DNA of 64,000 nt from Christensenellales bacterium (GTDB lineage: Bacteria; Bacillota; Clostridia; Christensenellales; UBA1242). The position numbers were made by a program, and so were the translations under genes. The notes under the pieces are model-generated. The model was not told the DNA's origin. It searched no databases and saw nothing but the letters and a program-made list of their open reading frames with translations. The DNA is taken from NCBI GenBank assembly GCA_051889995.1, contig JBJFDL010000002.1, positions 81,051 to 145,050 on the forward strand. The letters run 5' to 3'. This document shows positions 9,049 to 61,498 of this stretch, one piece after another. How positions within the stretch are numbered: the first letter of the stretch is position 1; each line of letters begins with the position of its first letter.

Positions 9049-10011
9049 ATGAACAAAAAAGATGAAATAAAAATCAAAGAAGAAAAAGTTTTAGATAAGG
9101 AATTTAAAAACTTAAATAAAATTGAAGATGCTGAAATAAAAGAAGAAGAATGTTTAATGAAACTTAACGCAACAAAATCTAAGGCTGGAGAAAAAATAAC
9201 TAAAAGTAAAATTTTAGATAACACAACTAAGAAAGGTAAAATTTTACGCAGTATTATTGTTTTTTCAATCTTTGCTGCATTAATAGTTGGTGGATTTTTT
9301 GCATTAAAACAAACAGGGTTATTATCAAAATTTAATAATCTTGAAGATGTTAAAAATTTTATTTTATCTGGTGGAAATTTTAGTATCATCATTTTTATGT
9401 TAATACAATTTTTACAAGTTACAGTTTTACCAATACCGGCAGCTATAACAACAATTGCTGGTGCACTAGTATTTGGACCTTTAAAAACCTTGATTTTAAG
9501 TTTTATAGCCATAATGTTAGGAAGTTTTTTTGCTTTCTTTTTAGGTAGAGTTTTTGGCAAAAAAATTTTAATTTGGATTGCCGGCAAAGAAGATGCAGAA
9601 AAGTGGACAAAAAAATTAACCAATGGAAAATATTTGTTTTTTTTGATGATGCTATTCCCTATTTTTCCTGATGATATTTTATGTATTGCAGCAGGTGTTA
9701 CAAATATGAGTTTTAAATTTTATTTTTTCACAAATTTAATTTCAAGACCACTAGCACTAATTTCTTTATGTTACTTTGGAAGTGGGGCAATAATTCCTTT
9801 TAAAGGAACTGGATTAATTTTTTGGGCAATAATAGTTGTAGTTATTGCTATCATATTTTTCCTTTCATTGAAATATCAAGATAAAATCGAAAACGCTGTT
9901 GATATTTTAGCAAGTAAAATGGGAAGAAAAAAAACACAGACACAAAAAGTTAAAATAGAAACATTAAATATTAACGACGGCGACGACACTAACAACACTG
10001 CTTCAAATTAA
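9049..10011 (+). CDS. TVP38/TMEM64 (DedA-related) family membrane protein
   Basis: VLPIPAAITTIAGALVFGP...FFLGRVFGKK and LFPIFPDDILCIAAGVTNMSF are typical family motifs. Confidence 0.8.
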   Translation: MNKKDEIKIKEEKVLDKEFKNLNKIEDAEIKEEECLMKLNATKSKAGEKITKSKILDNTTKKGKILRSIIVFSIFAALIVGGFFALKQTGLLSKFNNLEDVKNFILSGGNFSIIIFMLIQFLQVTVLPIPAAITTIAGALVFGPLKTLILSFIAIMLGSFFAFFLGRVFGKKILIWIAGKEDAEKWTKKLTNGKYLFFLMMLFPIFPDDILCIAAGVTNMSFKFYFFTNLISRPLALISLCYFGSGAIIPFKGTGLIFWAIIVVVIAIIFFLSLKYQDKIENAVDILASKMGRKKTQTQKVKIETLNINDGDDTNNTASN

Positions 10012-10183: not shown

Positions 10184-11276
10184 TCAATTTTGACAGTTAA
10201 TTAAATATGAAAGGACGAAGTCTTCTAATTCGCCATTCATAACAGCATCAACATCACTTGTTTCATAATTAGTTCTATGGTCTTTAACAAGAGTGTAGGG
10301 ACAAAAGATATAACTTCTTATTTGGTTTCCCCACTCTATTTTTTGTTGTTCACCAGATATTTCACTAATTTCATTTAAATGCTGTTGCTCCTTAATTAAC
10401 AATAACTTACTTTTTAAAATTTTTAAGCAAGTTTCTTTGTTCTGTATTTGGCTTCTTTCATTTTGACAACTTACAACTATGTTGGTTGGCAAATGTGTTA
10501 TTCGAACAGCACTTTCTGTTTTGTTTATATGTTGTCCACCTGCACCACTACTTCTAAATGTGTCTATTTTTAAATCTTGCGGATTTATATTAACCTCTTC
10601 ATCGTTGATAATTTCGGGAATAACTTCAACGCTAGCAAATGTTGTGTGCCTTCTTTTGTTTGAATCGAAGGGCGAAATTCTAACAAGTCTGTGAACGCCT
10701 TTTTCACTTTTCATTTTTCCATACGCATTTTCACCACTTATTGTGAATGAAAGGCTTTTATAACCGACATCTTCTTTTAAATAATCGTTAACAACAAGTT
10801 TTAAATTTTCTTTTTCACAATATCTTGTATACATTCTAAAAAGCATTTCTACAAAATCATAACTCTCCGTTCCACCTGCTCCCGAATGAAGCATAACCAA
10901 AGCGTTAAGATTATCGTATTTTTTGTTTAATAATGTATCTAAATATAAAGAATTTGTTTTTTCACACAACGAAGTTAATTCAGCACTGATTATGTTTTCA
11001 TATTCAAGTTTTTCTTCTTCTTGCAGACCATCTAGCATATTAATGTCATTTTTTATATTTTTAAATTGAACATCAATCTCTTTCAACAAATCTAACTCTT
11101 TTTGTTTTTTTGCTAATTCTTTGCTCACTTCAATCAATTTTTGAGAATTAGAATATATGCTATCTTCATTCAATTCATCCTTTAATTTTTCAACGTCTTT
11201 TTTATTGCCTTCAAAGACAGTTACTGATTGTTAAAATTTGTTTTTCTAATTCTTGCAACTTGTCTAAATTTAACAT
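10184..11276 (-). CDS. prfB: Peptide chain release factor 2 (needs a programmed +1 frameshift at 11213)
   Basis: SPF motif (RISPFDSNKRRHTTF) and GGQ ([23 protein letters not shown]). A 21-codon leader ORF MLNLDKLQELEKQILTISNCL from ATG 11276 ends at an in-frame TGA. The +1 frame continues into the main ORF. Confidence 0.92.
11211..11216 (-). promoter_or_regulatory. prfB +1 frameshift site CTT TGA
   Basis: Minus-strand CTT(11216-11214) TGA(11213-11211) followed by A. Frame arithmetic links ATG 11276 to the downstream ORF only through a +1 shift. Confidence 0.85.
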
Positions 11277-36548: not shown

Positions 36549-38384
36549 TTACTCTAAAATCGCTTTAATACGACGAACGCCCGCACTGCTTGCCTCTTCT
36601 TTTGTTATTTTAAATTTTCCAAGTTCACTAGTATTGCTTACATGAGGTCCTGTGCAAATTTCTTTTGAAACATCGCCAATTGTATAAACCGAAACGATTT
36701 CGGGATATCTTTCAATAAATTGATGTTCAGCCCCAACTTCAACAGCCTTTTGTTTTGGCATTTCTTCTTTCGTAACAACTAAACCTTGACTAATCCAATC
36801 ATTTACCAAATCTTCAACTTGTTTAATTTCCTCTTCTGTCAATTTATGGTCACAAGGAAAGTCAAAACGCAATCTTTCATTTGTAATATTTGAGCCCATT
36901 TGATGTGATTCTTTACCTAAAACATTTTTTAATGCAGCATTTAGTAGATGTGTTGCAGTATGATATTTTGTTGTCATTTCACCAGTGTTTGCAAGACCAC
37001 TTTTAAACTCACCTTCTTTAATTGCTTTTGATTTTTCTTGGTGTTCTTTAAAAGCATTTTTAAATCCTTCTTCATCAACAGTGAAATTAATTTCATTTGC
37101 TAATTCAATGGTTAATTCAAGAGGAAAGCCAAATGTATCATAAAGTCTAAAAGCCGTTTTACCATTTATTTCATCTTTTATGTCTTCACCATTTTGCTTT
37201 GCAAATTCTTTATGCCTTTTAATTCCGTTAATTACTTTATCAAATTCTTTCAAACCTTGTTCCAAAGTTTTGTTGAACTTTTCTGTTTCTTTTAATATTT
37301 CATTTAAAATATATTCTTCATTTTGTTTTAAGCGAGGATAAGCTTCGTCGTAAATTTTTTCAATAAAAATTTTAGCGCAATTAATTAAATCTTCACTCTT
37401 CAAATTTAAACTTTTTGCATATCTAATTGCTCTGCGTAGTAATCTTCTTAAAATGTATCCTGCCCCCAAATTCGATGGAAGAAGACTGTTTTCATCGCCT
37501 ATTAACATAACAGCTGTTCTAATGTGGTCAGCAATTATTCTCATTGCTTTTGTCGCTTTTTCATTTTCTTCATATTTTTGTGAACTTGCAGTTTCAAGAT
37601 ATTTTATTACATCGTAAAACAAGTCAGTTTTATAAACATCATTTAATCCATTCAAAAACATCAAACATCTTTCAAAGCCAAAGCCCGTGTCAACATTTTT
37701 GTTGTCTAGAGGCAAATAACCATCTTCAGCTCTTTTATATTGCATATACACGTCATTACCAATTTCAACATATCTTCCGCAATCACATTCAATATCACAA
37801 TCTTTTGAGCATTTTTCTTCTCTAATTGGATAGAACCACTCATTATCTGGTCCACAAGGAGTGTCAACAGTTCCTTCTAACTCCCAGAAATTATTTTCTT
37901 TTCCGTTCGGCTTTTTACCTAAATAATAGATATTTTCTTCTTTTATTCCTAAATTTTTAAGATAGTTTGCTGTTTCAGTATCTTTTGGGGCATGTTCATT
38001 TCCAGCAAAAACGCTTGAACATATTTTATCTTTATCAAGTCCAAAAACCTCTGTTAACAATTCTACTGTCCAAGCAGTTTTTTCTTTTTTAAAATAATCA
38101 CCTAAACTCCAGTTTCCCATCATCTCAAAGAATGTGCAGTGAGAACTATCGCCTACTTCATCAATATCTACAGTTCTAACACACCCTTGAACATTACATA
38201 GCCTTGTTCCACTGGGATGTTTTTTACCTAATAAATAAGGCATTAAAGGTTGCATTCCTGCAACATTAAACATAACCCCAGTTGTGCCATCACCTATTAA
38301 AGAAACAGCACCAATGTTTACGTGTCCTTTTCCTTCATAAAATTTTATCCACTTATCTCTTAATTCTTTTGATGTAATTTTCAT
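36549..38384 (-). CDS. alaS: Alanine--tRNA ligase, short form (catalytic plus editing domains, no C-Ala domain)
   Basis: FNVAGMQP, HCTFFEMMGNWSLGDYFK, DTGFGFERC. Editing HTATHLLNAAL and CTGPHV. Ends ...GVRRIKAILE at 611 aa. Confidence 0.85.
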   Translation of the reverse strand: MKITSKELRDKWIKFYEGKGHVNIGAVSLIGDGTTGVMFNVAGMQPLMPYLLGKKHPSGTRLCNVQGCVRTVDIDEVGDSSHCTFFEMMGNWSLGDYFKKEKTAWTVELLTEVFGLDKDKICSSVFAGNEHAPKDTETANYLKNLGIKEENIYYLGKKPNGKENNFWELEGTVDTPCGPDNEWFYPIREEKCSKDCDIECDCGRYVEIGNDVYMQYKRAEDGYLPLDNKNVDTGFGFERCLMFLNGLNDVYKTDLFYDVIKYLETASSQKYEENEKATKAMRIIADHIRTAVMLIGDENSLLPSNLGAGYILRRLLRRAIRYAKSLNLKSEDLINCAKIFIEKIYDEAYPRLKQNEEYILNEILKETEKFNKTLEQGLKEFDKVINGIKRHKEFAKQNGEDIKDEINGKTAFRLYDTFGFPLELTIELANEINFTVDEEGFKNAFKEHQEKSKAIKEGEFKSGLANTGEMTTKYHTATHLLNAALKNVLGKESHQMGSNITNERLRFDFPCDHKLTEEEIKQVEDLVNDWISQGLVVTKEEMPKQKAVEVGAEHQFIERYPEIVSVYTIGDVSKEICTGPHVSNTSELGKFKITKEEASSAGVRRIKAILE

Positions 38385-38393
38385 TTTTTTCTC

Positions 38394-38975
38394 CTAACTA
38401 TTTGTTTCATCTAGATATGTTGCTTGTAAGTCTGCAAGATGGAATAAAAATGCCACAGGATATTTATAAAACGCACTACTTAGCGCATAACTTCCTCCCA
38501 ACACACGAGTATCATATCCACCCATATGCCAATTTATTGCCATAGCTTCTTCTCTTGTTAATTTCATAAAACCAGAAATCATATATACTGATTTTTCACC
38601 ATGCCCATAAGGCAAAAGTTCATCGACTGTGTAATATGGAACTTGAACCCATGCGCCATCTACTTTTGTGTTACGCATTTCTTCTTTATAGAAATCTACT
38701 TTACAAATATCATGCAACAATGCAATTATTGCAATGCTTTCGTCACTAATTTTTTCTGAATAATTTTCGCCATATTCATTAACGACTATTCGTTTAAATC
38801 TTCTAAATGTATTTAAAGAATGTTCAACCAATCCACCCCTATGACAAGAATGGAATTTTGAACTTGCTGGTGCAGTAAAAAAATCGCTGTTCTCTAAATA
38901 ATTAAGCAAATTTTCTGCGCCTTCTCTTTTTATGTTATCTTTAAAAATTTTAACAAATTCTTCTTTTGTATCCAT
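38394..38975 (-). CDS. HD-domain phosphohydrolase
   Basis: FHSCHRGGLVEHSLN and ALLHDICK (the H...HD signature). Stops (TAG) 9 nt before the alaS start. Confidence 0.75.
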   Translation of the reverse strand: MDTKEEFVKIFKDNIKREGAENLLNYLENSDFFTAPASSKFHSCHRGGLVEHSLNTFRRFKRIVVNEYGENYSEKISDESIAIIALLHDICKVDFYKEEMRNTKVDGAWVQVPYYTVDELLPYGHGEKSVYMISGFMKLTREEAMAINWHMGGYDTRVLGGSYALSSAFYKYPVAFLFHLADLQATYLDETNS

Positions 38976-43431: not shown

Positions 43432-44610
43432 CTATGCTTCTTTTTCATCAATAGTTTCATTTAATTTTTCTTTTATTATATTATAACAAGTAGATAGTAA
43501 ACATTTCTTTTTCTTTCTTTCTCTGTGAACTGCTTTTTGTATGTTCAAGTTTTCTGGATAAATATTATTGCCACCTTCTTGAATTACAAATTCATTGTTG
43601 TCCTCCACGTATGCTGAAAATACATTATATCTTTTAGAAGCATACATTGGCTTTTTACCTTTTGGTGTTCTAACATATTGAGATTGTCCTGAAACGTGAT
43701 AGGTATTATTTTCTAGTTTACCTGGTGTGTTACCATTGCAAACAAATACTGCATCGCAAGGAAGTTGTCCGTTAAAATTTTTTCTTGCTGAAACTTCTCC
43801 TCTTGCTGTGCTTGTTTTATTTTTCATATTTGTTTGAATACCAATTGTGGCATTTCGTTTGCGTCTATCTCTGCCAACTTTTTCAACATTCAATATCACA
43901 CTTACACCAGTATTTAAATAATGCAATCTTGAAACGCCATCACGAACATACTTATCTTTCAATTCATTAAATGCTTCTTCAAAAATATCACGACCAATTT
44001 CTTTAATTATTGTGTGTTCTTGAAAGCCTCTCATTAAATAAAGGTCTATATCTAACAAAATTTTATCACTTAATGAGAAGAATTTTTTTATATCATTAAT
44101 TAATCTTTGTTTTCTTTTATTTAAACCAAAATAAAGAGCTTTATTGTTTTGAATTGAAGCAGTTCTTAAATATTTTAATTGCCATTCTTCTCCAAGTAAA
44201 TCACCACCAAAAATTACTATTGTTTTACCACGAGGATTTACTGATGATAAGTTGTTTATAATTTCATCATTTTTACCTGTGCAGATGCCTTTTTGAGGGT
44301 TACTTGTATCAAAATAATTAGTTGAACAATAGAATATTAAGTTTAAAGATTCTTGGTTTCTCTTCAATGTGATAGTTTCATTACTAATAATGCTATAATC
44401 TTCACTTAAAACTTCATTAACATAGTCATCAACTGTTGGTGTTCCTAAGTTTTCAACTACATCATTCGTTGCTAAATTAACTTTACTGATTTTATAATTT
44501 TCTAAAAGGTCTGCGTCTTTTTTGGGAAAATTTTCTTCGTAAAATTTTTCTAATATATAATTATTTTTTTCAGGATTTGTATAAGGACCCTTTTTTCCGT
44601 AATCTGCCAT
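43432..44610 (-). CDS. Hypothetical protein, possibly a degenerate metallophosphoesterase-fold paralogue
   Basis: 392 aa. IVIFGGDLLGEEW resembles the GD motif II, but DxH, GNHD and GHxH are not evident. TAATG overlap with the upstream phosphoesterase gene. Confidence 0.45.
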   Translation of the reverse strand: MADYGKKGPYTNPEKNNYILEKFYEENFPKKDADLLENYKISKVNLATNDVVENLGTPTVDDYVNEVLSEDYSIISNETITLKRNQESLNLIFYCSTNYFDTSNPQKGICTGKNDEIINNLSSVNPRGKTIVIFGGDLLGEEWQLKYLRTASIQNNKALYFGLNKRKQRLINDIKKFFSLSDKILLDIDLYLMRGFQEHTIIKEIGRDIFEEAFNELKDKYVRDGVSRLHYLNTGVSVILNVEKVGRDRRKRNATIGIQTNMKNKTSTARGEVSARKNFNGQLPCDAVFVCNGNTPGKLENNTYHVSGQSQYVRTPKGKKPMYASKRYNVFSAYVEDNNEFVIQEGGNNIYPENLNIQKAVHRERKKKKCLLSTCYNIIKEKLNETIDEKEA

Positions 44611-52953: not shown

Positions 52954-55002
52954 TTAATAAATATCTTTTACATCAAGTGGTAAATCATCATAAGAAGAAT
53001 AAGCGTTCACTTGAAAAATAGAATCTTCATAACCTATTGCGCTATTTAATGAATAGTTAAACGCAAGCACTATAGTAGCATTTCTAACATAACTATTGTT
53101 AATTGAAGACTGTGTATAATATGTTACTGGGCTAAAAATATATTCAAACAAACCAAAATTTGCAACATTAGTTGATAAGTATGCCGAAATGGTTCCAACA
53201 CAAGAATTTCCAGCATAATTTAAAGCGACATCTTTAATGTTAGAATAACTGTTTGAAACACTCCCAAAATTATTGTAAGAACAAATGCCACCAACCAACA
53301 AGGCATTGCTTGTTTTAACATTAAAATTCCCACTAAAACCACATTTATCAATAACAGCTAATGGAGAATATAAATAAGCACAAATCCCTGCAACAAAACA
53401 TTCTGTTTCTCCACTAACATTAAATTCACTTTCACAAAGTGAGTTTATTATTTTAGGACTATATATTACATTGTTAATATTGGCATACATATTAGCGTAT
53501 GTTATTCCACCAATATAGCATCCACTTAAACTGTTTGCTACAATATTCCCTTCAAATTTTGAATGGTTAATATTAGAATAGTTAATTGATGTTACTCCTC
53601 CTGCATAAACAATTGCAGACTTTGATTCAATTTCAATATTCGCACTGTTGATTGAATTTTTTATATCGCCAAAATTAAAAGTAGTAATTCCACCAACTAA
53701 AATTTCCAATTTGACTTCATCTTCTTCTGTTAAACTATTAACAGATAGTTTTCCTGAATTTACACAATCTTTAATTTCGCCATAATTTTCAATTACAAAC
53801 GCTGATATTGTTGGATTCCATTTTTCATTTGTTGATTGCGTAATATTTGCTTTATTTAATGAGTTATTAATTGCTCCTTTATTAATTCTAACAAATGCAC
53901 TCGAATCAACAGTTTCTAAATTTATTTCACCAATAACTTTTGAATTTACTATCTCACCATTATTAATTTTTGAGTAAGGAGAAAAATAAACATCTTTTGA
54001 AGAGTTATTCTTTATGTTTGCCGTAATGTTAATTTCACAATTTTTAATTTTTCCATTGTTTTCAAGCGCTATTATTGAAAGATTTTGTTCATTATTAACA
54101 ATATTAATTTCTTTTTCTATTATAACATTAAATTTAACATCTTCAATTTTGCCATTGTTCTCTTTTACTAAAAATGAATAATCTTCACCTACATCTTCTT
54201 CAATATTCACATTAATTATGCAATTTTTAAAATAACCTTTAAGATTTTCAATTAATGCTTTATTTTTTTGCTTGTTGAATGTTATTGTATGTCCATTTCC
54301 ATCAATACTACATTTATTTTTATTTGTATATATTTCTTCATTAAAAACCAAATCATCACAAAGTTTACTTTTTAAATTTTTGTTTATTGCATTAACAAAT
54401 TGAGTCTCATTATTAATTTTTAATGGATATAAATTTGTTCCTAACCCAAATATATTGCCAATCACTATTAAAACAACGCCAATAAATAAAAATCCACTTA
54501 AAACAATGCTTGATGTTAAAATTAATTTTTTCCTAAATTCATAAGACATTTTCTTCTTGGGAAGTAAAATTTCTGCCCTATTTGCAACTATGATTTCATC
54601 ACGCAGTGTATAAATTTTTTTTATATTATTAATGATTTCTTCATTTTTAAATAAGAGTTTATATTTCTTTTTTAGTTCTTTTCGCCTATCTAGAATGGCA
54701 AGCATTTCAATAGGATAAATTGTTTTATTGACATAAAAGCGTAAACTTCTTTGTGCATAATGTTTAAATTTTTGTTGCAATTCAAAAGGTTCTTCAATTT
54801 TTGTAAATTCGTTAAATTTTGCAAGTTTTTCTTCATATTCTTTTATAATGCTTCTGCTTTTAAAAAGATAACAAACAGAAAGGATTGGAAAACGACCAAA
54901 GGAAATATTTAAATTTTCATCACTAAAAAGACTAGCCTTAAATTTAATAAGGTTATCATCTTTTATAGCTTGAAAAATATTTTTATAATCTACTTTTTCC
55001 AT
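52954..55002 (-). CDS. Single-pass membrane protein with cytoplasmic N-domain and extracellular GLUG-like repeat domain
   Basis: TM LILTSSIVLSGFLFIGVVLIVIGNIF at about aa 160-185. Repeats include LVGGITTFNFGDIKNS, YAGGVTSINYSNINHS, YIGGITYANMYANINN, FVAGICAYLYSP, LVGGICSYNNFGSVSNS. Confidence 0.55.
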   Translation of the reverse strand: MEKVDYKNIFQAIKDDNLIKFKASLFSDENLNISFGRFPILSVCYLFKSRSIIKEYEEKLAKFNEFTKIEEPFELQQKFKHYAQRSLRFYVNKTIYPIEMLAILDRRKELKKKYKLLFKNEEIINNIKKIYTLRDEIIVANRAEILLPKKKMSYEFRKKLILTSSIVLSGFLFIGVVLIVIGNIFGLGTNLYPLKINNETQFVNAINKNLKSKLCDDLVFNEEIYTNKNKCSIDGNGHTITFNKQKNKALIENLKGYFKNCIINVNIEEDVGEDYSFLVKENNGKIEDVKFNVIIEKEINIVNNEQNLSIIALENNGKIKNCEINITANIKNNSSKDVYFSPYSKINNGEIVNSKVIGEINLETVDSSAFVRINKGAINNSLNKANITQSTNEKWNPTISAFVIENYGEIKDCVNSGKLSVNSLTEEDEVKLEILVGGITTFNFGDIKNSINSANIEIESKSAIVYAGGVTSINYSNINHSKFEGNIVANSLSGCYIGGITYANMYANINNVIYSPKIINSLCESEFNVSGETECFVAGICAYLYSPLAVIDKCGFSGNFNVKTSNALLVGGICSYNNFGSVSNSYSNIKDVALNYAGNSCVGTISAYLSTNVANFGLFEYIFSPVTYYTQSSINNSYVRNATIVLAFNYSLNSAIGYEDSIFQVNAYSSYDDLPLDVKDIY

Positions 55003-55007
55003 ATTGT

Positions 55008-55721
55008 TTATTTTTTAATTTTTACTTTCCTTTCTTTTGCCCATTTATCTAAAACTTCAAACAAGTATGCTTCGTTAACATCTTGATTTTGCACGACAGT
55101 GTTAATGAAATCTTTACTAATCTTATATTGATATGCTAAATCATTAATTGCTTTCCCTTGATTTTCAAGTTCGGAAAGCATTATTTTGTGGTCTTTTTTA
55201 ATTTCTTCTAAAGTTTTTGCATTTTCTATAACACTTCCTGCAACTTCTTTGTTAATAAACTCACCAACTCCTTGCAAATTTTTACTGTAAGTGTCCATAC
55301 TTTTTTGCAAATCTTTAACAGAATAAGAATTTTCTTTTGCTTCAATTAAATTTCCAATTTTTTGAATTTGTGCCTCAACTTTTCCCTCTAAATTATTCAT
55401 ATTGATAATTTTTTTCTCAACTTCATTAAAACTATTTAAAAGTTTATCAATTTCATTTGAATATTTATTTGATGCAATTAAAAATTGGTCGACTTTTTGT
55501 GTTAATTGATTTGATTTTTCTGCTTGATTGGCCAGCAAAGAATATATGGAGGACATTTTATCTTTAACTTCACCAGAAAGGGCGATATTTAATTTATCAA
55601 CATCTTCTTTTACTAAAAAATATGTTCCAGTAAATTCTTTTAAATTTTCTTGAAGTGGTATTAAAAGATTACGATAATCAATAAATGCTGTAATTAATTC
55701 TTTTAATTGTTCGTTTTCCAT
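55008..55721 (-). CDS. All-helical / coiled-coil protein, function unknown
   Basis: 237 aa with heptad-like Lys/Glu/Asn-rich sequence. AGGGGA RBS inside the end of the helicase gene. 19-nt overlap with it. Confidence 0.55.
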   Translation of the reverse strand: MENEQLKELITAFIDYRNLLIPLQENLKEFTGTYFLVKEDVDKLNIALSGEVKDKMSSIYSLLANQAEKSNQLTQKVDQFLIASNKYSNEIDKLLNSFNEVEKKIINMNNLEGKVEAQIQKIGNLIEAKENSYSVKDLQKSMDTYSKNLQGVGEFINKEVAGSVIENAKTLEEIKKDHKIMLSELENQGKAINDLAYQYKISKDFINTVVQNQDVNEAYLFEVLDKWAKERKVKIKK

Positions 55722-58153
55722 TTTTTATTCCCCTTTATTTTTTTCAAATTTTCTCTATTAATTTTAATGATTTCCTTTTGTGTTTCTAATTCGCCTTTAA
55801 CCAAATCAATAATTAATCGACAAACTTCTGGATTGTCAATAAAATCATTATAATAACTTACAACACTCGCATCAAGTTTTTCGCTTTTGTATTGCATATT
55901 TTCCAAAAATTCTAATAGTTTTTGGTCATTAGAGATTAAAAATTGTTGTCTAGCTTCTTCAAATAAGCCCGCTTGCCAAAATTTTATTCCTGCTTCTCTT
56001 GGTTTTTGTTTGAAAACATATTCTTTATAGATTTCAATTCTCGCTAATTGTTCGTTTAAAATTTGTTCATCTTGAAGTTTTTCTGCATAGAATTTTGCAT
56101 TTTCAAATTGTCCTAGTTTAATAAATTCATAAATTCTATCTATTATTTCATCTTGCTCTAATTCAACTTTGCTTATAATTTTTGTAAATTCTTCAAAAGT
56201 TTTTTCACCATTTAATATTTCGAAATTACGTTTAAAGAAATTATCAAAAACTTTCACATTTTCATTTTCAAAGACGAATAAGTTGTGCTTTGCTCTAGAT
56301 AATCCAACATAAAACAAATTAAAATAATATCTGTAAACAGAATTTTCATCAGCTTTTTTATGATTTAATTTTAAATTTTCTAGATATTTCCATTTTCCAC
56401 TATTATTAGAAATCAAATTCCATAGCAAAACTGTATCTCTTTCTAACCCTTTTACTTCACTGATGGTCAAAACTTCTTGTTTTTTAAAGATTTTTTTAAC
56501 TTCTTCTTTTTGTTCATTCGAATTGACTAATATTGTAAAGTTTTCAAATTTTTGATTTTTTAATTTATCAATAAAATGTCTATCGAAAGTGCATACAAGT
56601 TTTGTGAAATCATCTTCATCTACGCTTTCATTTTTAATAACAAAATTATGAAGTCCAAATTGTTCAATATTTATTTGTCCTAATTCATCTAATAAATCAA
56701 CTATTTTTTTATTGTTACGATAATTCGCTTTTAATGTTTTAACGTTTAATAAATCTTTCTCATACATTAATCGTTTAAGATAAGCAAAATTAAAATATGA
56801 AGGATTAATCATCTGCAAAGCATCGCCAACACAAAACATTTTAATACTTATTTTCTTTAATAAATATAAATTAATTTGAGTAAAATCTTGCACTTCATCA
56901 ATTATTGATAAACTATATTTAGGAATTTTATTTACCATAAAAAGTAATTTTCTAGAAATAATATTATTGTCAATTGCTGATTTTGATAGATATTTTTCAT
57001 ATTCTTTAGCTAATAGATAAATTATTTCGCATTCCTCTCTTGTAAAACTGTTTTCACGCAAAGAAATGTATTTTTCAAGTGACAAAATATCGTTTGGATT
57101 ATCTTCATCACACCAACCAAAAATCATACCATAAATTTCTTTATATAAAAGAGCATTTGAAATTTTACTAATTTTTTTCATTCTGTTAAGTAAATTATGA
57201 TTGCTGATGTTTGGCAAAAAATCTTTTTCAAATGTTTCACTGGTTGTTATTTCTATGTCTTCGTTCGTTATTTTTTTATACAAATCTTCAAGTAATAAAT
57301 AATCAACTTTGCTGTCTAGATATTCGATAATTGATTTAATTTGAGAAATAATACTTTTTTCATTATTATCCACCAAAGTTAAACCTAATCTTTTTTCAAT
57401 GGCTTTTTTGTGTTCCTTATCAAGATAAACAATTTTATTGTTTTCATAATCATTAACAAAATCAATTAAACTTTTCTTATAAAGTTCAATTTTGTTTTTT
57501 GTATCTAAAAGTAATGCCCTAGAAAATGTTGTGTATAAAATTTTTCCACCATAATTTTTAGATGCAACAAAAATTATTTTGCTTGTGCATATATTTGTTT
57601 TACCACTTCCAGCAACACCTTGAACAAGCACATTTTCATTTTCTATATTCACTATTTCTTGCTGTTCTTTATTTAACAAAGGCAAATTGACGTATTTTGC
57701 AAAACTTACATAATATAATTTTTTTAGATTATCTTCACTAATATTTTTAGAATCACAAGTGGCAACTATATTAAAACTATTTATGTTTTTTTGATAAGAA
57801 ATTATTCTGCTATCGTGATTTTTGATTTTTTTTCCATCAAAATTTGATGCAAAAAAAACTATATCAAAAGGCGAAATATTTTTAATATTTTGAAAACCAA
57901 ATTTAACATAAAAACAAAATTTTTTATCAAAAGTTTGTATCTTAAAAGAATTGCATTTTGTTCTTAAAAACATATTTTTAAAATCATTAAGTTTTGTTTG
58001 CAAAGCTTCGCCAATTTTTAGGATAAAATCGTCAATAGAAATAAGTTTTTTTGTTTGCATCAAAAACCTTTCAACCTTAAAAATGCTAGATTGAGATGAA
58101 AGATATTGTTTGTTTAAGTTAACAGATAATGTTTGAGATGCAATATTTTCCAT
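55703..58153 (-). CDS. SF1 UvrD/HelD-like helicase-family ATPase with unknown N-domain and TPR-like C-tail
   Basis: VLVQGVAGSGKTNI (Walker A), IIDEVQDF (motif II), CVGDALQ, LKANYRNN, VKGLERDTVLL, FYVGLSRAKHNLFVFE (motif VI). Confidence 0.8.
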   Translation of the reverse strand: MENIASQTLSVNLNKQYLSSQSSIFKVERFLMQTKKLISIDDFILKIGEALQTKLNDFKNMFLRTKCNSFKIQTFDKKFCFYVKFGFQNIKNISPFDIVFFASNFDGKKIKNHDSRIISYQKNINSFNIVATCDSKNISEDNLKKLYYVSFAKYVNLPLLNKEQQEIVNIENENVLVQGVAGSGKTNICTSKIIFVASKNYGGKILYTTFSRALLLDTKNKIELYKKSLIDFVNDYENNKIVYLDKEHKKAIEKRLGLTLVDNNEKSIISQIKSIIEYLDSKVDYLLLEDLYKKITNEDIEITTSETFEKDFLPNISNHNLLNRMKKISKISNALLYKEIYGMIFGWCDEDNPNDILSLEKYISLRENSFTREECEIIYLLAKEYEKYLSKSAIDNNIISRKLLFMVNKIPKYSLSIIDEVQDFTQINLYLLKKISIKMFCVGDALQMINPSYFNFAYLKRLMYEKDLLNVKTLKANYRNNKKIVDLLDELGQINIEQFGLHNFVIKNESVDEDDFTKLVCTFDRHFIDKLKNQKFENFTILVNSNEQKEEVKKIFKKQEVLTISEVKGLERDTVLLWNLISNNSGKWKYLENLKLNHKKADENSVYRYYFNLFYVGLSRAKHNLFVFENENVKVFDNFFKRNFEILNGEKTFEEFTKIISKVELEQDEIIDRIYEFIKLGQFENAKFYAEKLQDEQILNEQLARIEIYKEYVFKQKPREAGIKFWQAGLFEEARQQFLISNDQKLLEFLENMQYKSEKLDASVVSYYNDFIDNPEVCRLIIDLVKGELETQKEIIKINRENLKKIKGNKKWKTNN

Positions 58154-58161
58154 TTGCTTTC

Positions 58162-59043
58162 CTATAAATTATTTAACAGAATTTTTCCATTTAAAACGTC
58201 ATTTAAATTAAAACTTTCTTCACCAACTTTAAATTGACCTTTATTTAAATTGATAGAAAATTTATTTTTATTTTCTTCAATATTTTTTCTTTGAAGTTTT
58301 ATTAATTCTTCATTTTGTTTAATATAAAACTTTTCGACTTTTTCTCTTATTAATTTAAGTGCTTCTTCCTTATTTTGATATTGCGAACGATTTTTTTGAA
58401 CTTTAACAGTTATTTGAGTTGGCAAATGTTTTACCACAACTGCACTTAAAGTTCGATTGATATGTTGACCACCAGCACCACTCGCTTTTGTAGTTTTTAT
58501 GCTTAAAAGTTTTTCATCAAAAGTTTCTAGTTTGGTTTTTTCTTCAAGTGCAACTATTTTTGCAATTTCATATTCTTCTTTGTTTAATATTTGATATATA
58601 CCAATATAATTTTTTACATTGGTAAAGACATTTATTCCCGAAGCAATAATTTCAACCTTACTATCAAAACTTTTTATTCCCTTGGTGCATTCTTCACCCA
58701 AAACTAATAAAATCATATCCATTAACATTGATAAAATATTAGAAGATTTGGCACTAATTTCAATTTTAACATTTTGAAATAATTTCTCTTCATTTTTAAA
58801 GAGTTCATTTCGTAATTCTATTGCACATCTTTTTGCTCCATCAAGTTTATCTTCTTCAATAAAAAATTTAAAATCATTATATAAATTTACAATATTTTTT
58901 AAACTTTTTTGAACATTAAGATAATGCATAAATTGTTTATTATCGCTTACAATTTCAACGTATTCTAATAATTTATTGGCTTCATTATATTCAATTACTT
59001 TTGCATCAAGCAATTCAATAATTTCAACATCAAGTAATTCCAT
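58162..59043 (-). CDS. RF1-derived class-I release factor paralogue: GGQ domain intact, decoding region degenerate
   Basis: [43 protein letters not shown] is close to the prfB GGQ region. RF1-like N-terminal helices. No PxT or SPF. About 60 aa shorter than RF1. Confidence 0.8.
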
Positions 59044-59048
59044 ATTTA

Positions 59049-59077
59049 ATTATAACAAATTTATATCTCATTTGCAA
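59049..59077 (-). promoter_or_regulatory. Sigma-A-type promoter placed for a leaderless RF-like transcript
   Basis: TTGCAA (59077-59072), 17 nt, TATAAT (59054-59049), 5 nt, ATG (59043). No SD. Confidence 0.5.
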
Positions 59078-59159
59078 AAAATTAATCAATTTTTTTCTAG
59101 ATAAGTTTTTTATGTATTTTAAATCGTATATTTATCAAGCATTCAAATTTAATAATTTA

Positions 59160-59640: not shown

Positions 59641-60366
59641 ATGACACAAACAATTTTAAAAAATTTATTTGTTGAAAGCAAGAATATTAATAAATATCCT
59701 TTTAATTTACCTATTTTCAAACACGATTTGAATATAAATTTTTCTAAGCCAGTAACTTTTTTGGTAGGAGAAAATGGCTCGGGTAAAAGTACACTACTTG
59801 AAAATCTTGCAAATTGTCTTGATTTTAATGTGTTAGGTGGAAATAAAAATCATATTTTAAATTCTAGTGAAAATCTAGATAATTTAGAGATTTCTAATTA
59901 TATGAAACTTAGTTTCTTTTATAGGATTTCTAAAGGTTTTTTCTTTAGAGCTGAAAGTTTTTTTGAGTTTGCGCAATATATTGATTATCTAGCAAAAGAT
60001 GATAGATCAATTTACTTTGGATATGGTGGAAAATCTTTACAAAAAAGATCACATGGGGAATCTTTTATTGAATTGTTTGGAAAATTTAAAGATGGAATTT
60101 TTATTTTAGACGAACCAGAAGCAGCTTTATCACCGGAAAGACAATTGACGCTTATGGCTATGATAGAAGAAAAAATTAAAAAATATAATTGTCAATTTAT
60201 AATTGCCACACATTCGCCGATATTAATAACTTTACCTAGTGCTGAAATCTTCGAAATTGATGAAAATGGTGAAATTTGCAAAAAAAGATATGATCAAACT
60301 AAACAATTTGATTGGTATAAACGGTTTATTTCTAATCCTCAAAAATATCTAAATTATTTATTGTAG
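59641..60366 (+). CDS. Stand-alone ABC/AAA_21-type ATPase
   Basis: LVGENGSGKSTLLE (Walker A), ILDEPEAALSP (Walker B), IATHSP (H-loop). 241 aa. Confidence 0.75.
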   Translation: MTQTILKNLFVESKNINKYPFNLPIFKHDLNINFSKPVTFLVGENGSGKSTLLENLANCLDFNVLGGNKNHILNSSENLDNLEISNYMKLSFFYRISKGFFFRAESFFEFAQYIDYLAKDDRSIYFGYGGKSLQKRSHGESFIELFGKFKDGIFILDEPEAALSPERQLTLMAMIEEKIKKYNCQFIIATHSPILITLPSAEIFEIDENGEICKKRYDQTKQFDWYKRFISNPQKYLNYLL

Positions 60367-60741: not shown

Positions 60742-61198
60742 TACGAGTGACAAACAAATTAAAAAACAGTCCATTAGCGACTGTTTTAGTTTGGCAGGCG
60801 AAGTAGGATGTTTGCACGAACCCACTGGCTTGTCGTGGGAAAACGAAGTTTTAATGCGCAGCAAACGAGTCTACGAGCGACAAACAAATTAAAAAACAGT
60901 CTATTAGCGACTGTTTTAGTTTGGCAGGCGAAGTAGGATGTTTGCACGAACCCACCGACTTGTCGTGGGAAAACGAAGTTTTAATGCGCAGCATACGAGT
61001 CTACGAGCGACAAACAAATTAAAAAACAGTCCATTAGCGACTGTTTTAGTTTGGCAGGCGAAGTAGGATGTTTGCACGAACCCACCGACTTGTCGTGGGA
61101 AAACGAAGTTTTAATGCGCAGCATACGAGTCTACGAGCGACAAACAAATTAAAAAACAGTCCATTAGCGACTGTTTTAGTTTGGCAGGCGAAGTAGGA
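60741..61198. repeat. Tandem array, 3 full 130-bp units plus partial units, each with a pseudo-tRNA-Trp 3' fragment and a terminator hairpin
   Basis: Units start at 60749, 60879 and 61009, with a partial unit at 61139 running into the genuine tRNA. Only 3-4 mismatches between units. Each contains TGGCAGGCGAAGTAGGA (the tRNA 3' 17-mer) and AACAGTC-n7-GACTGTT. Confidence 0.9.
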
Positions 61199-61257
61199 CT
61201 CGAACCCACGACCAACGGTTTTGGAGACCGCGACTCTACCAACTGAGCTATTCGCCT
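61182..61257 (-). tRNA. tRNA-Trp (anticodon CCA), CCA encoded
   Basis: Reverse complement AGGCGAATAGCTCAGTTGGTAGAGTCGCGGTCTCCAAAACCGTTGGTCGTGGGTTCGAGTCCTACTTCGCCTGCCA folds as a cloverleaf with anticodon loop CTCCAAA. Confidence 0.92.
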
Positions 61258-61310
61258 ATATATCTATTAAGTTTTACATTGTGCTATTAACGTTCTTTCG
61301 TTTGGTAGAC
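61239..61310. repeat. 72-bp direct repeat, copy 1 (tRNA-Trp 5' 19 nt plus 53 nt of upstream leader)
   Basis: Identical to 61427-61498 except for one base (G/A at 61292 vs 61480). Confidence 0.9.
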
Positions 61311-61426
61311 CCAAGGTCTTCCTCTTGTTTTAATCTCGTCTTTGTCTTGCCATTCCAAATACTCGTTAAAAGCAAGAACTTCCGTTTCGCTTCTTCTCAC
61401 TCCCCTGTGAGCGCTCAACTCTAGTT

Positions 61427-61498
61427 CCAACTGAGCTATTCGCCTATATATCTATTAAGTTTTACATTGTGCTATTAACATTCTTTCGTTTGGTAGAC
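61427..61498. repeat. 72-bp direct repeat, copy 2 (orphan tRNA-Trp 5' fragment plus leader, promoter-proximal)
   Basis: Same 72-mer as 61239-61310. In minus sense it continues AGGCGAATAGCTCAGTTGG-AAC-TAGAGT, then diverges into a 116-nt insert. Confidence 0.9.

Follow-up and report, generated by a model that had tools for sequence, protein, structure and literature searches.

Bacterial GGQ factors are held to fall into four families, RF1, RF2, ArfB and PrfH (PMC6514570). Codon-independent rescue is known among them for ArfB and for PrfH with RtcB (PMC6514570, PMC9304027); the latter pair rescues and repairs damaged ribosomes (PMC9304027, PMC6514570), and ArfB has been reported missing from Firmicutes (PMC6514570). 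Among helicases, HrpA rescues collided ribosomes (PMC11419001). RF1, RF2, ArfB and PrfH are also the families covered by a 2019 survey of bacterial GGQ factors, in which no family linked to a helicase is mentioned. Here we describe a release factor (RF)-like gene on the minus strand (58162..59043) of a 64-kb stretch of DNA from a Christensenellales bacterium (contig JBJFDL010000002.1); this whole stretch is called the window, and all coordinates refer to it. The gene is an ATG-to-TAG open reading frame (ORF) for a 293-residue, RF1-derived GGQ protein, and is the first gene of a four-gene operon that also encodes a superfamily 1 (SF1) helicase. Our literature searches found no published description of this family. 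The conserved operon together with the size of the family is the most informative fact about the gene, and we conclude that the RF-like protein represents a GGQ-factor family that is new, as is its set of partners.

RF1 ancestry and loss of decoding elements

The sole Pfam domain found in the RF-like protein is the RF-1 (GGQ, peptidyl-tRNA hydrolase) domain PF00472, at residues 175–258 (58270..58521, minus strand), with 79.3 bits against a cut-off of 35 and E = 2.9e-22. The GGQ itself is formed by residues 191–193 (codons 58465–58473, minus strand). A first-pass annotation of the window, made from its letters alone, had called the GGQ stretch nearly identical to that of the RF2 encoded in the window; the similarity stands, but 17 of 23 positions match, which is short of near identity. 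A profile derived from 52 family sequences matches E. coli RF1 best, over residues 5–342 (E = 5e-49 among PDB sequences), followed by RF2 (~1e-37 to 4e-39), PrfH (5e-24) and ArfB (1e-10). The window protein gives the same order of scores, RF1 > RF2 > PrfH > ArfB, against NCBIfam models, in keeping with the derivation from RF1 that had been proposed. An AlphaFold model based on the family alignment has a pLDDT of 81, shows the RF domain order and superposes on full-length RF1 and RF2; its best Foldseek matches are ribosome-bound RF1 and RF2 (E = 5e-14), with PrfH lower. On the strength of the profile and Foldseek E-values, the resemblance to RF1 is far beyond chance. Both ends of the protein had been described as RF1-like, and indeed the N-terminal part is matched to domain 1 of RF1 by profile as well as by structure, and the terminal NLNDVLNGK aligns with the RF1 C-terminus. 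The PCRF domain (PF03462) is below Pfam significance in the window protein but is matched by most family members, one of which NCBI labels a 'PCRF domain-containing protein'.

The elements with which RF1 reads stop codons are gone. In RF1 the tip of helix α5, GxGGxE, reads the first base of the stop codon. Alignment places EISAKSSN (residues 95–102, 58738..58761) at this position, as had been suspected, the tip itself being reduced to AKS--SN. The PxT loop of RF1 and its His/Thr third-base readers are deleted at a 16-residue segment (58558..58605), and the switch loop/domain-4 motif GDRSxRIRTYNYPQGRVTDHR is substituted by a 21-residue segment (58210..58272), all three sites lying on the minus strand. 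In alignments with E. coli RF1, indels coincide exactly with the helix-α5 tip GTGGDE (118–123), the PxT loop and GRIHTS (188–198), and the switch loop. No decoding tripeptide emerged from the profile alignment: neither PxT nor SPF is present, and the single proline of the protein is P208 in HLPT, which bears out the earlier reading. The estimate that the region before GGQ is ~60 residues shorter than in RF1 has to be revised to ~42, with GGQ at residue 191 compared with 233 in E. coli RF1; overall, the protein is ~67 residues shorter than E. coli RF1.

The same pattern holds across 115 superfamily sequences compared with E. coli RF1. The GGQ core is the best-conserved region, with 56% of positions identical to E. 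coli RF1. Identity drops to 0% at the α5 tip, 8% at the PxT loop and 4% at the switch loop, where gaps amount to 26–34% for the α5 tip and PxT loop and 3% for the switch loop. None of these three regions carries a conserved replacement motif in the 115 sequences, and the segments that replace the decoding elements vary in length and sequence among subfamilies. Codon reading appears to have been abandoned rather than re-invented in this family, and on these alignments the protein may be called codon-blind. The catalytic domain is under the constraint seen in true RFs, an argument for action in the peptidyl-transferase centre (PTC).

Comparison with models of the known families places the protein outside each of them. 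It scores 86.6 bits against the RF1 model TIGR00019 (cut-off 423) and 80.5 against NF001859 (cut-off 400), and the RF1 decoding features are deleted or replaced as described above. Against the RF2 model TIGR00020 it reaches 75 bits (cut-off 370), and its ORF is uninterrupted. For PrfH the score is 69 bits against a TIGR03072 cut-off of 166.65, and no rtcB adjoins its gene, the neighbours of which encode a helicase, a coiled-coil protein and a membrane protein. The ArfB model NF006718 gives 33 bits (cut-off 100) in a match limited to residues 175–204. Every test for RF1, RF2, PrfH and ArfB was thus negative, and the RF-like protein belongs to the class-I RF superfamily only.

RF1 (prfA) is nonetheless its closest relative, being collinear over domains 1–4, sharing the GGQ domain and giving the best match in both sequence and structure. 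It differs in having the PxT loop, the α5 tip, the His/Thr readers and the switch loop; moreover, members of the RF-like family are 25–67 residues shorter than RF1 and lie in a helicase operon, whereas prfA lies beside prmC. PrfH resembles the RF-like protein as an RF paralogue that has GGQ, a degenerate codon domain without a tripeptide and an operon-linked nucleic-acid enzyme (PMC9304027, PMC6514570), and PrfH-RtcB is the best functional analogy for the module. As the first-pass annotation stated, the architectures are different: PrfH (~200 residues) lacks domain 1, which the RF-like family retains and has furnished with a new motif. The partner of PrfH is the RtcB ligase while those of the RF-like protein are an SF1 helicase and two further proteins, and PrfH spreads horizontally whereas the RF-like module is inherited vertically in one clostridial clade. 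ArfB, ICT1 and mtRF-R (C12orf65) would share codon-independent peptidyl-tRNA hydrolysis with the RF-like protein if its activity is as proposed below. ArfB, however, consists of a GGQ domain and a basic C-terminal tail (~140 residues) without domains 1, 2 and 4, and the distinction from ArfB drawn earlier holds, since the RF-like protein has, besides domain 3, domain 1 and a trimmed domain 2/4.

Searches with single proteins or loci returned only near-identical copies and an ordinary Tenacibaculum RF1, and profile searches were needed to delimit the family. A word-indexed profile search found ~55 clusters of 308–339 residues at 270–380 bits, separated by a gap from canonical RF1, which scores 174. 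When 1.84 billion cluster representatives were searched exhaustively with the profile, 203 scored E < 1e-30; among the best 150 of these 203, 114 are 280–360 residues long and without PxT, GxGGxE and RTYNY. The superfamily is discrete and comprises at least 114 clusters at 50% identity, with 300–335 residues, all of which lack these motifs. Three subgroups are distinguished by their domain-1 motif and GGQ context. Subgroup A, which includes the window protein, has SVE[IV]MSDxKLY and GGQHINKTESAV; subgroup B has LTYEEVLLDKKLFL and GGQHINTTDSAI; and subgroup C, the least degenerate, has APE[IV]IAD and GGQNVNKVETA. In the window the family-specific domain-1 motif, of consensus SVEIMSDHKLYNFY, occupies 13 residues (58921..58959, minus strand). 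Its positions are invariant or near-invariant across the family and unconserved in RF1, and the motif may form a partner-binding surface. The window copy is the shortest and most derived family member, and in it the near-invariant ECQDERSQ is changed to KVQKNRSQ.

The RF-like ORF is intact in five independent assemblies. The ratio of nonsynonymous to synonymous substitution rates (dN/dS) of the gene is ~0.15 in comparison with 96%-identical orthologues and 0.11–0.18 in pairs with measurable divergence; in two near-identical pairs it is 0.3–0.6, with very few substitutions. From the value of ~0.15 and the existence of a discrete superfamily, we judge that the gene is not a relic but functional and under purifying selection.

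Stop codon usage in the window bears on whether the organism also has a canonical RF1. The gene for RF2, prfB (10184..11276, minus strand), is genuine: its product scores above the TIGR00020 cut-off, and it encodes an SPF motif and has a programmed +1 frameshift, in which 21 codons are followed by CTT TGA (11211–11216); no obvious strong internal Shine-Dalgarno sequence was seen upstream of the shift site. The 51 long ORFs of the window end in TAA (37), TAG (9) or TGA (5), which agrees with the earlier observation that TAG terminates several genes, among them eno (TAG TAG) and those with stops at 38394–38396 and 43432–43434. Several TAG stops overlap the TAGGAG ribosome-binding site of the next gene. 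Given that TAG ends 9 of 51 ORFs including eno, UAG is a real stop codon here, and RF2 cannot read it. That TAG is used, that RF2 is of the SPF type and that the RF-like protein has lost its decoding elements completely is indirect evidence for a canonical RF1 besides it, which would make the RF-like protein an extra paralogue.

A conserved operon with an SF1 helicase

The operon runs on the minus strand in the order RF-like gene, SF1 UvrD-like helicase, coiled-coil protein and membrane protein, with the genes tightly packed and translationally coupled. The helicase/ATPase gene (55703..58153, 816 residues) starts 8 nucleotides past the stop of the RF-like gene, whose TAG is overlapped by the helicase Shine-Dalgarno sequence. 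The helicase contains Walker A GSGKT (within 57596–57619), DEVQD (56885–56899) and SRAK (56288–56299). Since Walker A, DEVQD, VGDALQ and SRAK are invariant among helicase homologues, the protein should hydrolyse ATP. In addition to the core it has a private N-terminal domain (residues 1–150) and a helical C-terminal region (residues 640–816). Its model is mediocre, with a pLDDT of 73 and poor quality around Walker A, and finds only weak Foldseek hits (E ~1e-5, template modelling score ~0.2) in which PcrA/UvrD are mixed with Upf1, SETX and nsp13.

The third gene (55008..55721), which overlaps the helicase gene by 19 nucleotides, encodes a protein of 237 residues, predicted to be helix-rich and of coiled-coil type, that is present in all complete loci. 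After a 5-nucleotide gap follows the gene for a membrane protein of 682 residues (52954..55002). The best-conserved part of the latter is a cytoplasmic N-domain (residues 1–130) with FGRFPILS at 54877–54900, in which the FGRFP motif is invariant; a single transmembrane helix (54442–54525) leads to a variable, repeat-rich (NNGxI...) ectodomain. Searches of Pfam, NCBIfam, PHROGs, PADLOC and PDB sequences gave nothing significant for the 237- and 682-residue proteins or for the N- and C-terminal domains of the helicase.

No Shine-Dalgarno sequence precedes the ATG of the RF-like gene. A promoter-like site (59049..59078, minus strand), composed of TTGCAA, a 17-nucleotide spacer and TG-n-TATAAT, ends 5 nucleotides before it. 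A −35/extended −10 site is likewise found 5–7 nucleotides before the ATG in the subgroup-A loci L002, L085, L093 and L095–L102, where the RF-like gene starts at locus position 10001 in most cases, at 6866 in L095 and at 2970 in L096; the site is not evident in L094 and is differently spaced in L088 and L091. Subgroup-B genes have a leader with a normal Shine-Dalgarno sequence instead. The distance of 5–7 nucleotides and the missing Shine-Dalgarno sequence imply a putatively leaderless RF-like mRNA in subgroup A only.

The four-gene set accompanies the RF-like gene in every related locus that is long enough, amounting to ~25 loci from three subfamilies with G+C contents of 24–51%. The loci analysed were L002, L004 and L085–L102 for subgroup A, L107–L112 for subgroup B, and L118, L121, L122 and L128 for subgroup C, the last from organisms with 35–51% G+C. 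Within the operon the genes are tightly spaced or overlapping, and their order is constant except for insertions in two subgroup-C metagenome loci. In L118 (8001–15778) ~4.6 kb is inserted between the RF-like gene and the helicase gene, and in L122 (4443–11306) ~1.7 kb lies between the helicase and coiled-coil genes. The helicase is the most conserved member of the operon, with 38–57% identity to the window copy, compared with 33–49% for the coiled-coil protein, 24–35% for the RF-like protein and 25–33% for the membrane protein; among themselves, subgroup-A helicases are 62–88% identical. Judged only by the names of the metagenome-assembled genomes, isolates and samples, the hosts are uncultured Clostridia of the rumen and other gut-type sources.

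One and the same chromosomal site harbours the module in several subgroup-A genomes: RadC, two ABC transporters, RelA and gpsA lie upstream of it, and downstream follow HAD hydrolases and rubrerythrin. The window, too, has the downstream HAD gene, on the opposite strand. Neither IMG/VR viral contigs nor GenBank phages contained the module, the RF-like protein itself not having been queried against plasmid and phage collections, and the plasmid collection yielded only partial matches of 28–30% identity to stand-alone UvrD-like proteins (Shigella pINV, Cetobacterium). The syntenic chromosomal site and the absence from viral and phage collections form the pattern of a vertically inherited, lineage-specific module and not of a mobile island. 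A mobile-element origin was considered and rejected: within the scope just given IMG/VR and GenBank phages were negative, and the plasmid matches were distant, restricted to part of the helicase and uninformative.

The closest plasmid relatives of the helicase are uncharacterised 970-residue 'UvrD-helicase domain-containing' proteins. An example on the Shigella flexneri plasmid NZ_CP034933.1 (L130, 156713–159625) matches the helicase core with 29% identity over residues 320–631. Such proteins are widespread on large S. flexneri plasmids, where they lie beside virK and capU; one plasmid examined carries IncF replicons.

Possible functions of the module

We propose that the RF-like protein is a codon-independent peptidyl-tRNA hydrolase that acts, together with a helicase driven by ATP, in the rescue or quality control of ribosomes, and we put the probability of this reading at roughly 0.45. 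Without any codon being read, the RF-like protein would move into the A site of the ribosome and hydrolyse peptidyl-tRNA in the PTC, with its partners, instead of an mRNA codon, supplying the choice of target and the gating. Using ATP, the helicase would recognise or remodel ribosomes that have stalled or collided, or the mRNA on them, while anchoring of the complex to the membrane would fall to the coiled-coil and membrane proteins. Such a lineage-specific rescue or quality-control module might serve membrane-associated translation.

An ATP-driven helicase paired with the handling of stalled or terminating ribosomes is found in bacterial HrpA and in eukaryotic Upf1-eRF1, a likeness that is an analogy only. 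The SF1 helicase Upf1 acts together with a release factor, and structures of the Upf1 type rank high in the Foldseek hits of the helicase model; the homology, however, extends to the SF1 core only and is no better than that to PcrA/UvrD. HrpA differs in being a DEAH (SF2) helicase without a dedicated RF.

Several points weigh against the proposed rescue function. Ribosome binding, codon independence, a physical complex and the rescue role itself are all parts that we infer. No canonical prfA was found in the window or in any fetched locus, RF1 from the same genome was not recovered, and the closest canonical RF1 (P0078) was traced to an unrelated assembly. As the most derived copy, carrying KVQKNRSQ in place of ECQDERSQ, the window protein may differ in activity from the rest of the family. 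By sequence and structure the helicase falls in SF1, but these comparisons do not separate the UvrD/PcrA from the Upf1/SETX/nsp13 type, nor an RNA from a DNA helicase. Finally, a membrane protein whose ectodomain evolves fast would not readily be expected in a rescue pathway, and a sensing or conflict system would accommodate it equally well.

A role in conflict or defence could take two forms. The helicase might sense foreign nucleic acid, or the membrane protein surface events, upon which the GGQ protein aborts translation; or the RF-like protein might counteract ribosome-jamming toxins, as in PrfH-RtcB. An ungated codon-blind RF is expected to be toxic, like an abortive infection effector, and the fast evolution of the ectodomain is consistent with such a role. 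In PADLOC the best hits of the helicase are GajB-type UvrD helicases (E = 2e-12) and the 237-residue protein has a marginal DruC hit (E = 6e-4), while the window has a PtuA/AAA_21-like ATPase and a rearranged tRNA-Trp locus adjoining the operon. The resemblance to Gabija is nevertheless confined to these weak GajB-type scores: PADLOC is silent on the RF-like and membrane proteins, neither GajA nor any other known partner is present, and the full gene set of Gabija or of another catalogued defence system is absent. In most genomes, moreover, the module lies outside mobile or defence-island contexts, and its single syntenic housekeeping locus in subgroup-A genomes is unlike the fast turnover of defence islands. 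The results from viral contigs, phage genomes and plasmids given above point the same way, within the limit stated there for the RF-like protein. Taken jointly, the two forms of this explanation seem to us unlikely. We regard as rather improbable that the protein is non-catalytic or non-ribosomal, serving as a tRNA-shaped adaptor that recruits the helicase to ribosomes or another ribonucleoprotein, or hydrolysing esters off the ribosome. The near-invariant domain-1 motif SVEIMSDxKLY, which is absent from RF1, does suggest a new binding partner, and the domain 2/4 surfaces meant for the decoding centre are poorly conserved; but the GGQ and the ~55 residues around it are as strictly conserved as in true RFs, which is hard to account for without catalysis in the PTC.

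The remaining explanations leave the protein either an ordinary task or none. It is very improbable that it is the organism's only RF1, terminating at UAG and UAA by divergent decoding. The failure to find prfA in the window and the fetched loci would fit this, yet all known decoding elements are deleted with no conserved motif in their place, the score is 87 bits where TIGR00019 requires 423, the obligate linkage to a helicase operon is unlike that of any prfA, and TAG is a common stop, used even by eno, that demands an efficient RF1. That the gene is a decaying RF1 duplicate without function is scarcely credible. The window copy, being the shortest and most derived and having substitutions of near-invariant domain-3 residues, could be taken for a relic; against this stand the dN/dS of 0.11–0.18 in measurable pairs, the intact ORF in five independent assemblies, the retention of GGQ and architecture in more than 100 divergent clusters, and the conservation of the operon. 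The pseudogene reading was rejected on dN/dS.

The proposed rescue function can be extended to a more specific and more tentative picture, against which we would place the odds: a fifth bacterial GGQ family acting as the codon-blind catalytic subunit of a membrane-tethered, SF1-helicase-driven rescue or surveillance machine, which forms a vertical core module in uncultured Clostridia of gut and rumen and is convergent with Upf1-eRF1. What is unusual here is the retention of the RF1 scaffold with codon reading discarded, the helicase linkage, and the occurrence in Firmicutes, from which ArfB is reportedly lacking. If the protein acts on ribosomes, it would constitute a natural experiment on domain-3 accommodation without the decoding-centre switch, and the module would represent a new pathway of rescue or surveillance in gut and rumen bacteria that are abundant but uncultured. 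An RF that acts independently of codons and is gated from outside in an ATP-dependent manner could, in addition, be a useful tool for controlled peptide release.

Surroundings of the operon in the window

A plus-strand gene (59641–60366), divergent from the RF-like operon and separating it from the tRNA-Trp repeats described below, encodes a 241-residue AAA_21 ATPase similar to PtuA or AriA (PADLOC E ~1e-17) and much shorter than typical PtuA. Its position is held by gpsA and relA in related genomes, which indicates that the upstream flank has been rearranged in the lineage of the window.

A tRNA-Trp(CCA) gene (61182–61257, minus strand) is located within the region 60742–61498, in which Rfam recognises the tRNA only. 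Directly downstream of it are three tandem 130-nucleotide units, 97% identical, each consisting of the tRNA 3′ end (…GGGTTCG…TACTTCGCCTGCCA) and the hairpin AAAACAGTCGCTAATGGACTGTTTTTT. A 72-nucleotide segment (61427–61498) duplicates the tRNA-Trp 5′ end and the region upstream of it. These repeats look like the traces of integration or duplication events that recurred at a tRNA attachment site.

Elsewhere in the window, the minus-strand gene at 36549–38384 encodes an alanine–tRNA ligase of 611 residues. The usual bacterial enzyme has ~870 residues; the protein encoded here matches the short-form model NF002436 from end to end with 752 bits.

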